A stretch of 64,000 nucleotides of DNA from an uncultured Alphaproteobacteria bacterium (lineage in GTDB: Bacteria > Pseudomonadota > Alphaproteobacteria > Rs-D84), in contig CAMRSV010000001.1 of NCBI GenBank assembly GCA_947053455.1, forward strand, positions 177,010 through 241,009. The letters are read 5' to 3'. Shown here piece after piece: positions 9,439 through 43,453 of this stretch. The notes under the pieces are model-generated. The model was not told where the DNA came from and made no database searches. It saw nothing but the letters and a program-made list of their open reading frames with translations. The first letter of the stretch is position 1. The number at the start of each line of letters is the position of its first letter. A program made the translations under genes and the position numbers.

Positions 9439-11661
9439 ATGCCAGACAAGTTCAAGATTTTATCCGCCGGTGGAAAGGGCAAGGGCCTGAATATATTCAA
9501 GTCCAGCGCATATAAGGAACACGAACGTGTCCCAATGGCGCGCGAGTTCTGGATGCTGCGCTGGGCGATTGGGATATGGATTGCGTGCGCGTTGGCATTC
9601 GGATTTTCATTTGTGGCAGAGCATATCTGGCGCTATGGTTGGTCGCCGGCCACGGCACATTGGACAAAAATTTATCTGACAAATATGCTGATGACGGGCG
9701 GCTTGTCCGTCGTGGCGGAAATTCCCGCGTGGATTATGCGTTCCGTAATGCGAACTGATATGATGTGTATGGCGCCACTGATACCGATTGTTGCGTATTA
9801 TTTCATGTCGGACGGCGAATTGACCAAGGAGTTTAACCCCAACGCCAAGGACAAGTTTGAAGAAAAAACATCGCGCAAGGCGAACAAGGAAGATATTGAA
9901 AAAATGGGTCTGCTGAATGGGTTCATGATGGTTTTGGGGTATTTCAAGAAAAAGCCGCTGATGTTCAATGAATGTCTGTCGACGTTATGCGTGGCACCCC
10001 CCGGAACCGGTAAGACACAGGGTGTCGTTTTGCCGACTATTTTTGACACGACCGATGTTTCAATGATTATCAATGACCCGAAACCGGAATTGAAACAAAA
10101 ATCATCAGCATATCGTGCGTCAATCGGACCGACGTTTATCATGAATTGGGCGGGGCAAGATGACCCGGCGCGCGGAATATATTACCCATCGTGGAACCCG
10201 TTGTCGCCTGAACACGTCCCGTTTAATACAGAACAACGCGATTTGTACATTGATTCCATGTGCAAGGTGTTAATTCCGGACAACACTTCTTCATCAGCTG
10301 ACCCGCACTGGACTATTTCTGGTCGTGCGGCACTGTCTGGTATGGTGCAGTTCATTGTTTCCAAGGTAGAACGTGCCAAGGCGGACGACTATTTTTACGC
10401 ACGCATTCAATCCGGCGAATTTAACGCCGAAGATGCGGCGGTTCTTTCCGATTATTATTTATCAATGATGAATGACCCGAACGCATATGCGGCAAGTGCG
10501 CTGCTGGCGCGTGGGGAACTAAATGCGGCCAACTATGTCCATGTTGGTACTTGGGAAAATATTCCTGATGCGTGGGTTGGTCGCGAGGCGTCGCTTTCCA
10601 TGATTTTGGACTGGTTAAACGCGTCACAGATTGCCATTGCCCAGAATTTAGAGGAACGCCGTCGCCAAGGTGACCAGATGGTTATGATGGCCGATCCGAT
10701 GAAAGATTTGCTGCAAGGCGCAGTGGAAGAGGCGCGCCGCTATGCGTATGCGCATCGATCAATTTTGGAACTGACCCAGTTGGCGAACACCCCGGACAAG
10801 GAACGCGGCTCTATTTTGTCCACCGCAATGGCCGGGTTGTCGATATTCCGTAATGCGGCGGTTAAAAACCGCACCAGCCATTCGGATTTTCATTTTGCAG
10901 ATTTGCGTGGCATGATTGACCCGCGTGATGGCAAGATGAAACCGGTGACGGTCTATTTATCGATAAACATGGTTGATGCCCAGGCATTGAATCCAATTAC
11001 GGGTATATTTATCGAACTGATGTCAAATTTCCTGTTGGCAAATATTCCAAATCAGGTCGGGGCGAATGGCGAAAAAATGGGGCCATATCCTGTGTTGTTC
11101 GTGTTGGATGAAATGCCGAAAATGCAAAAACTTGAGGCTGTGATTCAAGGTCCAGACCTTGGGCGTGGACAATCGATTTCATATCTGATAATCGGCCAGG
11201 ATTTGCACCAGATTGCTGAAAAATATGGTAATGATGCGGCGGCAACTATCATTTCAACAACCGCGGCAAAAATTGTTCTGCGCCAAAATGACCCGGACAC
11301 CGCCACAAGATTTTCGAACATGATGGGCGAAAAGATGGAGAAAAAGAAAGAAAAGGGTCCCGACGGCAAGGAAGTTGAGGTGACAAAGAAAGAATTGCTG
11401 TTTACGCCTATGGACATTATGCGCCTGGATAAGAAAAAACAATTGGTTATATATCAGGGATGGTATCACCGACCGATTGAGGCCGACCATCAACCGGCAT
11501 GGCAGGATTCGCGTTTGTCCGGCTATATGGCCATGGGCGAGGCAGCGCCGCTGCCGGAATTTTTGATACCGTCGCATCATGCGATATTGGGTTATACGGG
11601 CACACCGCGCATTTATAATCCCATGACAGAAGAAATACGCGAACTTGCCCCATTGAAATAA
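9439..11661 (+). CDS. Type IV secretion or conjugative coupling protein (TraG/VirD4/TrwB family ATPase)
   Basis: It has two N-terminal TM helices, the Walker A LCVAPPGTGKTQGVVLPTIF, the Walker B VLFVLDEMPKM and the C-terminal TraG-D signature (YLIIGQDLHQIAEKYG, RQNDPDTATRFSNMMGEK). No other T4SS genes are in the window. Confidence 0.8.
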   Translation: MPDKFKILSAGGKGKGLNIFKSSAYKEHERVPMAREFWMLRWAIGIWIACALAFGFSFVAEHIWRYGWSPATAHWTKIYLTNMLMTGGLSVVAEIPAWIMRSVMRTDMMCMAPLIPIVAYYFMSDGELTKEFNPNAKDKFEEKTSRKANKEDIEKMGLLNGFMMVLGYFKKKPLMFNECLSTLCVAPPGTGKTQGVVLPTIFDTTDVSMIINDPKPELKQKSSAYRASIGPTFIMNWAGQDDPARGIYYPSWNPLSPEHVPFNTEQRDLYIDSMCKVLIPDNTSSSADPHWTISGRAALSGMVQFIVSKVERAKADDYFYARIQSGEFNAEDAAVLSDYYLSMMNDPNAYAASALLARGELNAANYVHVGTWENIPDAWVGREASLSMILDWLNASQIAIAQNLEERRRQGDQMVMMADPMKDLLQGAVEEARRYAYAHRSILELTQLANTPDKERGSILSTAMAGLSIFRNAAVKNRTSHSDFHFADLRGMIDPRDGKMKPVTVYLSINMVDAQALNPITGIFIELMSNFLLANIPNQVGANGEKMGPYPVLFVLDEMPKMQKLEAVIQGPDLGRGQSISYLIIGQDLHQIAEKYGNDAAATIISTTAAKIVLRQNDPDTATRFSNMMGEKMEKKKEKGPDGKEVEVTKKELLFTPMDIMRLDKKKQLVIYQGWYHRPIEADHQPAWQDSRLSGYMAMGEAAPLPEFLIPSHHAILGYTGTPRIYNPMTEEIRELAPLK

Positions 11662-11680
11662 TTAAAAATAAGCCGCCATT

Positions 11681-11986
11681 TTATAAATTAGGCACGCAAA
11701 TAATTGTCGCCATAAACACAATTATACATAATGATAATATATGCCCCGCCCAATGCAGGTAAGATGTGTATGGGTCGGCATAATTTTGTTGCATCATTCG
11801 GACAAAGAATCTGAAATGATTATCGCGGGCGCGCCGGTCGCTAAAATCCACCGAATATTTTTCGCCATCAATAAAGTTAAAAATAATTTGATATTTTGGA
11901 TTGGCGCCGTATATATTTTTACAATAAATAACGCATTTTGATACCCGCATTGTCCAATTATGCTGAAAAAGCCATTGTTTGGTCAT
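11681..11986 (-). CDS. Hypothetical small protein in an AT-rich stretch
   Basis: This is an ORF with a C-terminal hydrophobic segment in a region of about 35% GC. The longer track ORF (to 12145) would run across the repeat module, so the internal Met at 11986 was chosen. The evidence is weak. Confidence 0.3.
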   Translation of the reverse strand: MTKQWLFQHNWTMRVSKCVIYCKNIYGANPKYQIIFNFIDGEKYSVDFSDRRARDNHFRFFVRMMQQNYADPYTSYLHWAGHILSLCIIVFMATIICVPNL

Positions 11987-12018
11987 CTGCCCATCGCTTT
12001 GTTGAATATAAGAACAAA

Positions 12019-12123
12019 GACCGTCAGCAAGATGACGGTCGGGGTGTTGATAAATCAAACAACTAGTGATCCCGTTGCTTTCGACTTTCGCCTGTTGTAT
12101 GGCAACGGCACCCCGACCATTTA
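12019..12123. repeat. Partial copy of the GGTCGGGGTG repeat module
   Basis: GGTCGGGGTG at 12037-12046 and its reverse complement CACCCCGACCAT at 12109-12120 flank a 62-bp core. An extra hairpin GACCGTCagcaagatGACGGTC is also present. The architecture matches modules inside the repeats at 19228-19323 and 30972-31047. Confidence 0.6.
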
Positions 12124-12413
12124 AGATCAGGGATATTAACGACAATAACCATAGGAGCGTTATGCTAAAGCGTCCGGTTATGCCGAGTTGTTTGGGCTTA
12201 TCAAGGCCCCGAACACCGGATCCCGCCGATGTTCAATTTCACTATATCAGGAAAAAATGATATTTGCAACAAATTCCGGGCATTTATCGCAAATTCGCCA
12301 CCGCGACCGGCATGTTTCCACATGCCTATTTGCTTGTTTGCCCCCCCCCTTTGTTCGGGGGTTCTTCGTCCCTATATTAAAAATTAAAACCGACACAAGG
12401 TCGGCTTGAATTT

Positions 12414-12490
12414 TGGTAGCGGGAGAGGGACTTGAACCCCCGACACGTGGAGTATGATTCCACTGCTCTAACCAGCTGAGCTACCCCGCC
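12414..12490 (-). tRNA. tRNA-Met (anticodon CAT; possibly the initiator or lysidine-Ile isoacceptor)
   Basis: A cloverleaf was folded by eye. The anticodon arm is GTGGA-ATCATAC-TCCAC, the T-loop is GGTTCAAGTCC and the 3' end is CCA. A hairpin with a T-run follows downstream. Confidence 0.75.
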
Positions 12491-19080: not shown

Positions 19081-19442
19081 AAACAAATGGTCGGCAATCA
19101 TTTTTTTTTCATGTTTGGGAGATGAGAAATAAGATGCCGACCATAAAGTATGTTGATGACACTAAACATATTTCGGAATATTATCCCGCCACCAACATAA
19201 AAAGATAAGACCACCAAAAAAAATCAGATGGTCGGGGTGTTTAGAAAATCGCACAAACTCGACCCCGTTGGATTTTTGAGGGGTTGCCCCCACTATTGCA
19301 TATTCCAACGGCACCCCGACCATTATAAGGTACATAGGGCTTAAACGGTGCAAACGCACCATCATGGATATTCCGATGCGATTCGCACCGAGTTTGTGAG
19401 AGGCTTTCTAACGGCCCCGAATCCAATATCCCTATTGAATTC
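19081..19442 (+). repeat. Composite intergenic repeat, copy A (nested inverted-repeat modules)
   Basis: About 130 bp at the left end (19087-19215) are near-identical to the reverse complement of 31064-31192. Inside it, ATGGTCGGCA (19087-96) and TGCCGACCAT (19135-44) flank 38 bp. ATGGTCGGGGTG (19228-39) and CACCCCGACCAT (19312-23) flank a 72-bp variable core. The conserved blocks GGTGCAAACGCACCATCATGGATATTCCGATGCGATTCGCACCGA and GGCCCCGAATCCAATATCCCTATT are shared with copy B. Confidence 0.8.
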
Positions 19443-19507
19443 AAATATATTATACAATATTTGAATAAAAACACAAGAAAAAACACCGACATTGTCGGTG
19501 TTTTGTA

Positions 19508-23266: not shown

Positions 23267-23335
23267 GGGTGGTTAGTTCAGTTGGTCAGCCGCGTTACGT
23301 TGACATCGTAATGTTGTTGGTTCCCTGGATAATAT
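23267..23335 (+). pseudogene. Degenerate tRNA-Val-like fragment (pseudo-tRNA)
   Basis: The 5' acceptor GGGTGGT and an anticodon arm identical to the downstream tRNA-Val (GTTACGTTGACATCGTAA) are present. The D arm and T arm are mutated and no complementary 3' acceptor strand or CCA is present. Confidence 0.5.
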
Positions 23336-23354
23336 CACTAAAGCAAAAAGTTTT

Positions 23355-23431
23355 GGGTGGTTAGCTCAGTTGGTTAGAGCGTTACGTTGACATCGTAAAG
23401 GTCGTTGGTTCGAGTCCAATACCACCCACCA
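23355..23431 (+). tRNA. tRNA-Val (anticodon GAC)
   Basis: The cloverleaf is GGGTGGT...TTACG-TTGACAT-CGTAA...GGTTCGAGTCC...ACCACCC-A-CCA. Confidence 0.88.
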
Positions 23432-30794: not shown

Positions 30795-30849
30795 TGCGCC
30801 CGCACAATTTTTCCTATCTTTTTTCGTTTTAATAATGTATAATTCATTT

Positions 30850-31192
30850 GAATCTAATAGGGATATTGGATTCGGGGCCTTTACAAGCCTAAAAAAACAC
30901 GAGTCGGTGCGAATCGCATCGGAATATCCATGATGGTGCGTTTGCACCGAATAAACCCATGTACCATATTTATGGTCGGGGTGCGCTGTGAATATGTTGA
31001 ATATCGGCGGGTCAGTACTCGTGTAATGATTTGTAAACACCCCGACCGCCTTATTTTTGGTGGTCTTATCTTTTTATGTTGGTGGCGGGATAATATTCCG
31101 AAATATGTTTAGTGTCATCAACATACTTTATGGTCGGCATCTTATTTCTCATCTCCCAAACATGAAAAAAAATGATTGCCGACCATTTTTTA
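30850..31192 (-). repeat. Composite intergenic repeat, copy B (inverted relative to copy A)
   Basis: The reverse complement matches copy A at both conserved ends and in the central conserved blocks. The modules are ATGGTCGGGGTG (30972-83) with CACCCCGACC (31038-47) flanking a different 54-bp core, and ATGGTCGGCA (31130-39) with TGCCGACCAT (31177-86). Confidence 0.8.
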
Positions 31193-42858: not shown

Positions 42859-43167
42859 ATGGCAAATTCACAAGCGCCAAAATATACCAAGGCGGACTTT
42901 CTAAATTACAAGAAATTGGCCGAAAAACTGGGCGCCGATCCGATAGAAGTGTATGAAGTGATGCGTCGCCACTGGAAGGCGAGTACGCCAATAAAATATA
43001 CCGTCAACGGTCGCAATGCAGTTAGTCAAATGATTGTTATGAATACCAACCGTAAATCGGTTGGACGCACATCTAGAACATCGACAACAAATAAAAATGC
43101 ACTGCTTTTGCATCCAATGGGATTTGGTGTATTTGTAGAGATGCTTAAATCAACAAAAAGGAAATAA
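42859..43167 (+). CDS. Hypothetical basic protein, paralog A (possible Rha/ORF6N-like DNA-binding motif)
   Basis: The N-terminal KADFLNYKKLAEKLGADPIEVYEVMRRH resembles the LAxxLG...V helix-turn-helix signature of the phage Rha/ORF6N/KilA-N regulators. It is a tandem paralog of the next gene. Confidence 0.45.
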   Translation: MANSQAPKYTKADFLNYKKLAEKLGADPIEVYEVMRRHWKASTPIKYTVNGRNAVSQMIVMNTNRKSVGRTSRTSTTNKNALLLHPMGFGVFVEMLKSTKRK

Positions 43168-43168
43168 C

Positions 43169-43453
43169 ATGATAGTAGAAGGTGAAAGAAAATTTACAAA
43201 AGCCGACTATTTAAATTATAAAAAGCTGGCGGAAAAACTGGGCGCCGACCCAAAAGAAGTATATCAAACAATGTTGCGACATTACAAAATGCGCACGCCG
43301 ATTGAATATGAATCAAACGGGATTAAGGTAAAAAATTTTATGATTGTAAGGGCAGTGGGTAAATCTACAATATCTCATCGAAATACTATTGTATTACATC
43401 CGTATGCATTCACTAAATTTAAGGAAGTATTCACAAAAGGAAATACAAAATGA
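43169..43453 (+). CDS. Hypothetical basic protein, paralog B
   Basis: It shows clear sequence similarity to 42859-43167 (KADYLNYKKLAEKLGADPKEVYQTMLRHYKMRTPIEY). It starts 2 nt after the paralog A stop. Confidence 0.45.
   Translation: MIVEGERKFTKADYLNYKKLAEKLGADPKEVYQTMLRHYKMRTPIEYESNGIKVKNFMIVRAVGKSTISHRNTIVLHPYAFTKFKEVFTKGNTK

Follow-up and report, generated by a model that had tools for sequence, protein, structure and literature searches.

The repeated unit and its three copies

The stretch of DNA analysed here, 64 kb of contig CAMRSV010000001.1 from an uncultured alphaproteobacterium (the window), carries three copies, A, B and C, of a non-coding unit of ~250–390 nt bounded by a promoter and a terminator. 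Units A and B merely lie between genes, downstream of accC and mnmG, so that the displacement of housekeeping genes suggested in an initial annotation of the repeat is irrelevant, and C lies between a tRNA-Met gene and a gene for a VirD4-like coupling protein. On sequence grounds, the copies are divergent relatives of the phage C4/sRNA-Xcc1 antisense RNAs. The sense strand is throughout the RNA strand of the unit.

19081–19456, minus strand: copy A, promoter to terminator (profile extent 19199–19464, minus)
30836–31191, plus strand: copy B, promoter to terminator (profile extent 30830–31075, plus)
12010–12269, minus strand: copy C, full-length and divergent (profile extent 12009–12253, minus)

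An inverted alignment of mosaic identity joins A (19081 to ~19467) and B (~30826 to 31192) over ~390 nt. The near-identical arm reported initially is borne out, positions 19085–19223 being essentially 100% identical in the two copies (a repeat search reports 122 nt at 99%), and so are the two shared blocks, with A equal to B across the 24-nt block and across the larger one at 19346–19391, which measures 46 nt instead of 45. The copies diverge in the segment bounded by GGTCGGGGTG and CACCCCGACC and in two short stretches. Inverted repeats of 10–12 bp, ATGGTCGGCA/TGCCGACCAT and GGTCGGGGTG/CACCCCGACC, are present as described, except that the GGGGTG repeat of B, with GCGGTCGGGGTG as its far arm, spans 10 bp and not 12, as does that of C. 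Repeat-linked GGTCGG...CCGACC modules number five in the 64 kb, three with GGGGTG ends and two with GGCA ends; two more such pairs near 45.1–45.6 kb have different ends.

The similarity between the repeats is far beyond chance, a profile hidden Markov model run on the window recovering exactly three copies (E = 1.6e-47, 5e-41 and 4e-37). Since the profile finds the full unit at 12009–12253, the third module, first taken for a partial one, is a complete, divergent copy. A and B likewise reach further than the limits originally drawn, to −10 boxes at 19449–19456 and 30836–30843.

Family assignment and relatives

A scan of Rfam at gathering thresholds assigned 12029–12118 of the minus strand to RF02221 (sRNA-Xcc1, gathering score 53 bits) with 55.5 bits, so that copy C passes. 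Local scans with the same model gave matches in the corresponding orientation for A (31.5 bits, E = 0.0016) and B (24.0 bits, E = 0.098). The cores, which had been thought to differ completely, thus all align and match one family, and their lengths of 72 and 54 nt reflect the presence or absence of a distal hairpin, P2b, together with variable loops; P2b is found in A and C and not in B. The GGGGTG inverted repeat corresponds to helix P1 of a three-way junction.

A Der protein identical to that of the window turns up only on ENA and Logan metagenome contigs. Relatives of the unit were found by a genome scan with the P1 ends as pattern, which returned at least 118 loci in three classes: tRNA-Pro genes, a few actinobacterial coding sequences and true elements. 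The last class comprises at least 41 non-redundant elements in "Candidatus Enterousia" and other metagenome-assembled genomes (MAGs) of animal-gut Alphaproteobacteria, with 2–4 copies in some MAGs among the matches listed, which do not include the genome of the window itself. Together with 41 relatives, A, B and C form alignment A3 of 44 sequences, in which all three align within one family. One relative from another species, L081, holds the same complete unit at 78% identity, likewise downstream of mnmG, and a viral scan recovered one IMG/VR phage-like contig with the leader before a lipoprotein gene.

The ~60 tRNA-Pro matches (Chloroflexi, Patescibacteria, Acidobacteria) are false positives, because P1 (CGGGGUG/CACCCCG followed by ACC) is a common acceptor end of tRNA-Pro. 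A tRNA-derived element was accordingly rejected as a candidate, and the window's six tRNAs include no tRNA-Pro. L011, L016 and L018 are among the tRNA-Pro genes that match the pattern. P1 may have this acceptor end by chance, or it may mimic a tRNA for RNase P. C4 (RF01695) and isrK (RF01394) gave no match at gathering score or in E-value scans of the three regions, permissive Rfam scans of the same regions for a known family covering the 5' domain gave noise only, and a metagenome scan for further arm copies with the pattern TTTATGTTGGTGGN{25,45}CAACATACTTT matched one unrelated coding sequence only.

Architecture of the unit

Each unit consists, in order, of a sigma-70 promoter, H1, H2, a variable linker, P4, a CCCCGA-like segment, the three-way junction and the terminator T1. 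The decoy, made of b1 in the H2 loop and the a1 linker, is located 5' of P4. Within the junction, P1, P2 and P3 surround a single-stranded J3/1; the P3 loop region carries a' and J3/1 carries b'. As the copies are structured-RNA units, the inverted-repeat modules of the initial annotation are P1 and the distal terminator T2, and its conserved blocks are H1 and P4. As they are of C4/sRNA-Xcc1 type, its variable core is P2 with the a'/b' address.

Copy A
19449–19456, minus: predicted extended −10 box TGTATAAT, kept in A, B and L081
19419–19442, minus: H1 with GGGA loop, overlapping the 24-bp block; double changes in RNAalifold
19389–19418, minus: decoy, H2 with b1 (GUUAGAAAG) in its loop and the a1 linker (CACAAACUCG)
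19346–19391, minus: P4 domain (the 45-bp block), outer stem CGGUGC/GCACCG, 100% identical to B
19230–19321, minus: sRNA-Xcc1-like three-way junction (RF02221, 31.5 bits, E = 0.0016)
19312–19321 paired with 19230–19239, minus: P1
19265–19311, minus: P2/P2b
19252–19261 and 19239–19248, minus: a' and b'
19199–19233, minus: terminator T1 (GACCAUC...GGUGGUC and U tract), −8.6 kcal/mol, 7 U in the next 9 nt
19150–19198, minus: arm hairpin P5 (AUGUUGGUGGC.../...GUCAUCAACAU), in the minimum free energy (MFE) fold
19081–19144, minus: terminator T2 (AUGGUCGGCA, ~40-nt loop, UGCCGACCAU, U tract), a GGCA inverted repeat

Copy B
30836–30843, plus: predicted extended −10 box TGTATAAT
30850–30873, plus: H1
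30874–30889, plus: H2 with b1 (UUUACAAG)
30897–30904, plus: a1 (ACACGAGU)
30904–30949, plus: P4 domain, same as A
30974–31047, plus: three-way junction without P2b (RF02221, 24.0 bits, E = 0.098), aligning with the family
31017–31024 and 31030–31038, plus: a' and b'
31044–31075, plus: T1 from the terminator scan, −11.7 kcal/mol, 7 U in the next 9 nt
31076–31124 and 31130–31191, plus: arm, P5 and T2

Copy C
12241–12269, minus: promoter TTGCAA-17-TATAGT with TG, from the promoter scan
12211–12234, minus: H1
12194–12210, minus: H2 with b1
12186–12194, minus: a1
12140–12185, minus: P4
12127–12132, minus: anti-P1 segment CCCUGA, paired in the MFE fold
12037–12118, minus: sRNA-Xcc1 three-way junction (RF02221, 55.5 bits)
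12010–12040, minus: T1 from the terminator scan, 8 pairs at 12040–12019
11681–11986, minus: candidate cargo open reading frame (ORF) of ~101 aa with a hydrophobic C-terminus, from the ORF list

The promoters, predicted from sequence, take the form TTGAAA or TTGACA, 16–17 nt, TAGAAT or TATAAT, and equivalent −35/−10 pairs precede ~44 homologous loci. Scans for promoters and terminators independently recovered the promoter and T1 of C and T1 of B. In copy A, the 5' arm of T1 has GACC in common with the 3' strand of P1, and the T2 hairpin belongs to the MFE fold, the U tract after it being read from the sequence. Between accC and the copy A promoter lies a perfect 11-bp hairpin with A and T runs beside it (19480–19504), resembling a bidirectional terminator.

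Evidence for a structured RNA

RNAalifold, applied to the 44 full leaders, supports H1, P4, P2 and T1, with double changes in 18 of 33 pairs. Many fall in H1 (columns 42–47/52–60), and the outer stem of P4 switches to CGGCAC/GUGCCG in 5–7 loci. P2 shows double changes at six of its eight pairs, amounting to 69 double-change cells against 20 ± 4 in shuffled alignments. Folding z-scores are about −5. The structure is one of RNA, on the sense strand, because G-U outnumbers A-C in the RNAalifold pairs (113 vs 14) and the sense strand folds more stably than the antisense in 43/44 members, by 13.4 kcal/mol. An early suggestion of a family of structured sRNA genes was therefore essentially right: the helices bear compensatory changes, pairing is strand-specific, and promoter and terminators lie on the same strand.

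In the arm of A and B, the substitutions that distinguish L081 keep pairing and not coding. P5 of L081 shows eight one-sided changes of G-U/G-C type with pairing kept, and its T2 one compensatory change from U-A to C-G. The candidate small ORFs of the arm are not conserved; a sense ORF of 39/57 aa is frameshifted between A and B by an A8/A9 run, an antisense ORF of 24 aa is truncated in L081, and both were rejected.

A private address in each copy

The a1 linker and the P3 loop region (a') are exactly complementary, and b1 in the H2 loop complements b' in J3/1. This complementarity of a'/b' to their own decoy is kept in 44/44 members examined while the letters of the address vary from copy to copy, and it also holds in two additional copies from which the exact search pattern is absent. 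In the window, the a1/a' pairs are CACAAACUCG/CGAGUUUGUG in A, ACACGAGU/ACUCGUGU in B and CAAACAACU/AGUUGUUUG in C.

Between cognate a1 and a', the longest perfectly complementary run measures 8.5 nt on average, compared with 4.2 nt in non-cognate combinations. With RNAduplex, 5' and 3' segments pair at −24.0 ± 2.4 kcal/mol when cognate and at −12.1 ± 3.5 kcal/mol when not, and the cognate partner ranks best in 39/40 cases. The three window copies are mutually orthogonal by this measure, with cognate energies of −22 to −30 and cross energies of −7 to −16 kcal/mol: A scores −30.4 with itself, −12.6 with B and −10.8 with C; B −22.4 with itself and −15.2 and −7.2 in its cross pairs; and C, decoy against antisense, −24.2 with itself and −15.8 and −11.0 in its cross pairs.

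Differences between A and B reside mainly in b1, a1, a', b', the P2 tip and the T1 loop and are coordinated; some lie in the promoter flank and in the P4–P1 spacer as well. Their identity is mosaic because the scaffold is identical while the address parts differ in coordination. The same coordination with the decoy argues that the variable core is not a cassette: the cores are homologous, and their variable parts co-vary with a1/b1 outside the module, which a swapped cassette would not do.

Overlap with a terminator and the proposed switch

A T1 hairpin that starts at the GACC of P1 and is followed by at least 5 U occurs in 36/44 members. In the predicted MFE folds of 39/39 related leaders and of A, B and C, the decoy pairs with a'/b', the CCCCGA-like segment pairs with the 5' strand of P1, and P1 itself does not form; a full T1 is present in 36/39. 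When P1 is forced, the mean cost is 10.6 kcal/mol and most members lose the full T1; the anti-P1 duplex has a mean energy of −13.0 kcal/mol, against −8.8 in shuffled sequence. Removing the 5' domain in silico lets the RNA fold into the three-way junction. P4 was considered as an IsrK-like first terminator, an option not adopted, a U tract following it in one subgroup only.

Downstream of the junction, an ORF on the same strand starts within ~200 nt in most of the 51 leader occurrences surveyed (36/51 at the 260-nt cut-off of the script). Nineteen of these ORFs encode one family of signal-peptide proteins that has no Pfam match; other cargoes are an EcoRI-type methylase, HsdM, an XRE helix-turn-helix (HTH) protein, a Mob_Pre relaxase and a glycosyltransferase-like protein. 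The ORF of copy C occupies the position of the post-leader ORFs of most related loci. A symE-like cargo was rejected for copy C, its ORF matching neither Pfam nor NCBIfam.

From these observations we propose, with a probability of roughly 60%, that each copy is a transcription unit of a structured C4/sRNA-Xcc1-type RNA with decoy-controlled attenuation, the latter being suggested by the folds, and that T1 probably gates the downstream region. The nascent RNA would adopt either of two mutually exclusive folds. By default (OFF), the decoy would bind a'/b' and the CCCCGA-like segment the 5' strand of P1, leaving the 3' strand of P1 free, so that T1 would form and transcription end. Were the decoy displaced or removed, P1 would close into the junction and withhold GACC from T1, and RNA polymerase would read through into the cargo (ON). 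The decoy might be displaced by a trans RNA with the same address, in the manner of short IsrK, or through RNase P-type processing where P1 starts with GGU, as happens in C4; the P1 beginning, GGU and then G(U/C)CA or ACC, may be taken as a lead toward such processing. The cargo would be an accessory gene in copy C and most relatives and, in A and B, a 140-nt P5–T2 RNA arm.

An extension of this proposal, which we put forward as a speculation and judge unlikely, would make the family an RNA-only, address-coded autoregulatory switch, bistable gene by gene and endowed with immunity specificity. Only an RNA from the same locus, or from an incoming element with the same address, would displace the cis decoy; this RNA would be either the processed junction or a free piece of decoy and would move the nascent leader out of the terminating fold into the read-through one. 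If so, surface-protein paralogues, restriction-modification genes and phage morons would be bistably ON or OFF in a manner resembling phase variation without DNA rearrangement, mobile elements would show C4-like immunity specificity towards each other, and the ORF-less A and B would be pure RNA switches with P5–T2 as output.

Comparison with known systems

RF02221 was described as an integron-cassette sRNA of Xanthomonas campestris, also found in Stx, APSE, Acinetobacter and Pasteurella phages, and RACE and Northern data define it as an 88-nt species in Xanthomonas (PMC2996969). The window family resembles it in the closing stem P1, in a P2 with an AUACAA-type internal loop and an optional distal hairpin, in P3, in a J3/1 of 6–8 nt, and in its location upstream of an accessory or mobile-element gene on the same strand (symE in Xanthomonas; ORF6N, BRO-N, KilA-N or Ant in phages). 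It differs in its P1 (GGUCGGGGUG vs GGCCGGGGGG), in a conserved 130-nt 5' domain and a P1-overlapping terminator that the Rfam model does not have, and in its hosts, uncultured gut Alphaproteobacteria with several copies per genome.

Members of RF02221 scoring 79.6 and 79.8 bits occur in E. coli prophages, and others in phages of Acinetobacter, Pasteurella and E. coli. These phage and prophage elements precede an ORF6N, BRO-N, KilA-N or Ant gene by ~40 nt and carry b1 (CUCAAAA) in the loop of an upstream hairpin, a1 next to it, a' in the P3 loop and b' (UUUUGAG) in J3/1. A further copy, a2, stands beside the Shine-Dalgarno sequence, and b2 is found in the loop of a hairpin after P1 in the E. 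coli and Acinetobacter elements; no b2 copy was found in the Pasteurella phage element. Four a-sequences are each present three times (TGCAAAG, GCAAGTAG, TACGAAG and CCAAAAA). Locus L123 combines isrK, C4 and Rha with the same a1b1/a'b'/a2b2 plan, which suggests, from this shared arrangement, that RF02221 belongs with the C4 clan. In Rfam, sRNA-Xcc1 has no clan and C4 is placed in CL00128; in the literature searched we found no treatment of the two as one kind, the nearest being an APSE study that lists both. In L123 (1462–1704 and 2370–2612), the isrK-C4-Rha and Xcc1-ORF6N modules stand in tandem, and the a1b1/a'b'/a2b2 arrangement also occurs in L124, L126, L127 and L128.

According to PMC5320573, the c4 immunity RNA of P1/P7 has three stems with a'/b' loops and acts in trans; RNase P releases it from a longer transcript, cleaving at a GGW at the 5' terminus of P1. 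IsrK exists as two isoforms with alternative structures, the short isoform switching the long one (PMC4825925). C4 (RF01695) with its IsrK-type 5' region (RF01394) shares several traits with the window family: the topology (P1, P2, a P3 with a' and a J3/1 with b'), co-transcription from a single upstream promoter, an a1/b1 copy of the target further 5' in that transcript, short variable specificity sequences and a P1 starting with GGU, the RNase P site of C4 (PMC5320573). Unlike C4, the window family has no a2/b2 over the ribosome-binding site of its cargo, a P1-overlapping terminator taking the place of occlusion, and its cargo is not an antirepressor. The intramolecular decoy and antisense junction are thus those of C4/IsrK, with an output that has probably been rewired to transcription attenuation. 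Group 1 C4-like sRNAs of Acinetobacter baumannii (PMC5320573) are also multi-copy and chromosomal, with an extended 5' region, apparent GGW processing and variation concentrated in the a' loop. They belong to another sequence family and phylum; in the window family a' and b' both co-vary with a1/b1, and the passages of PMC5320573 consulted describe neither cis decoy covariation nor terminator coupling for Group 1.

Identifying the repeat as a regulatory RNA avoids its annotation as a MITE or cassette. By its architecture, sRNA-Xcc1, usually called a virulence-associated trans sRNA, is grouped with the phage C4/IsrK immunity RNAs, and the phage members examined display the full a1b1/a'b'/a2b2 logic. 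In a gut alphaproteobacterial clade, judging from the predicted folds, the module appears to have shifted from translational occlusion to transcription termination and has multiplied before many accessory genes with an orthogonal address in each copy. If the proposed mechanism holds, these would be natural, compact, programmable and mutually orthogonal riboregulators, of interest to research on gene control in mobile elements and to the design of synthetic RNA switches.

Alternative explanations

Several results weigh against decoy-controlled attenuation. A and B score under the RF02221 gathering threshold and have no downstream ORF, P5 and T2 following T1 instead. Thermodynamic predictions of the full leader never show the three-way junction, which makes the ON state hypothetical. 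P1 is 100% paired but invariant, with almost no covariation support in the set because the search pattern fixed it (variation outside the pattern comes from L099, Rfam and E. coli members only), and the local P3 hairpin is weakly supported, being 86% paired with little covariation. No a2/b2 target was found within 200 nt downstream, where cognate and non-cognate energies are alike (−13.1 vs −13.5 kcal/mol). Finally, many related loci are paralogous, 19 of them with one cargo family, so that the association of leader and gene is inflated.

Some of these points would suit stand-alone precursors of trans-acting sRNAs, from which a junction of ~85–100 nt would be excised as in C4, its a'/b' loops repressing mRNAs elsewhere or on incoming elements (immunity); T1 would then be a plain gene terminator, the decoy an aid to folding or processing, and adjacent ORFs would go unregulated in cis. 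The 88-nt species of Xanthomonas (PMC2996969), the trans action of C4 and the multi-copy A. baumannii family with variable a' (PMC5320573) are precedents; A, B, L010, L030, L069 and L070 have no downstream ORF, and the P1 start, GGU and then G(U/C)CA, is tRNA-end-like. We nonetheless hold this account to be rather unlikely: no cognate-specific complementary site lies within 200 nt downstream, an RNAduplex scan of the window, a weak test, revealed no outstanding trans target and no discrimination, and the constant spacing and orientation before ORFs, with the exact GACC overlap of P1 and T1, favour a role in cis. Cis and trans roles are compatible, not exclusive.

In ON-type transcriptional riboswitches such as the pbuE adenine riboswitch, the closing helix and an intrinsic terminator share sequence, the 3' strand of the former overlapping the 5' arm of the latter, and closure of the junction should block termination here as it does there. 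A small molecule, an ion or an RNA-binding protein might then stabilise the P1-closed fold, with a/b as a variable structural helix and the GGGA loop of H1, the internal loop RUAUAU...GAA of P2 and the P4 segment GCAUCGUAAUCC as binding nucleotides. The direct overlap of P1 and terminator and the strong conservation of several single-stranded positions fit such an attenuator. It is made very doubtful by the lack of a metabolic or ligand-like theme in the downstream genes (secreted proteins, methylases, an HTH protein, a relaxase, phage morons), by the failure of any Rfam riboswitch model to match the three regions, by the nature of the competitor, an intramolecular copy-specific antisense decoy, and by the homologous phage elements, which use RNA–RNA pairing at the ribosome-binding site.

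The window units resemble Correia elements, Rickettsia palindromic elements and REP sequences in being short, intergenic and repeated and in their wealth of inverted repeats, and the initial annotation had considered MITE-like elements and cassette-like cores. Nested MITEs, attC-like cassette boundaries or invertible promoter segments would account for two inverted copies with a 100%-identical arm, for perfect inverted repeats of 10–12 bp, for the neighbourhood of copy C (a VirD4-like gene and a tRNA) and for cargo genes of an often phase-variable kind. The inverted repeats are, on the contrary, internal helices and not termini, and the units end in a promoter and a terminator, without terminal inverted repeats or target-site duplication; outside the A/B alignment the flanking sequences are unrelated and contain no direct repeat. 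Nor does the one presence/absence comparison possible show polymorphism, B and L081 (78% identity) sharing the site downstream of mnmG in two species. The internal helices covary with G-U pairs valid on one strand only, orientation to the downstream ORF is constant, and a core of 55–70 bp is, to our knowledge, too short for known invertases. GTTRRRY attC core sites were not noticed on reading the copy sequences, no formal search having been made. Recombination at the DNA level is thus extremely improbable and already largely refuted.

Genomic surroundings

Decoy-controlled attenuation would leave A and B with an RNA arm as output, and the loci L010, L030, L069 and L070 are similarly devoid of a downstream ORF. 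In this lineage, T1 is followed by a ~50-nt hairpin of the GGGCGGCGACGA.../...UCGUCAUCGCCC type and a separate strong terminator, a 3' part analogous in architecture to the A/B arm and unrelated to it in sequence.

The signal-peptide proteins form a large paralogous family, encoded in Enterousia-like genomes, that matches no Pfam entry; they have a conserved C-terminal motif, ...GMYD.V...F.N.G.G.F..G, and each has its own leader (L005, L009, L012, L013, L014, L017, L035, L036, L062, L064, L071 and L110).

On one side of copy C, the VirD4/TraG-like type IV coupling-protein gene (9439–11661) converges on the small ORF of its leader, and on the other tRNA-Met (12414–12490) is directly upstream of its promoter; the region 9439–12490 resembles the border of an integrated conjugative element. 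Elsewhere in the window, a partial copy of the 3' half of tRNA-Val (23355–23431), 47 nt at 72% identity (23292–23338 vs 23379–23425), lies 87 nt upstream of the gene and may be what is left of an attachment site of an integrated element. Positions 42879–42999 recur in direct orientation at 43189–43309, with 72% identity over 121 nt and a spacing of 310 nt.

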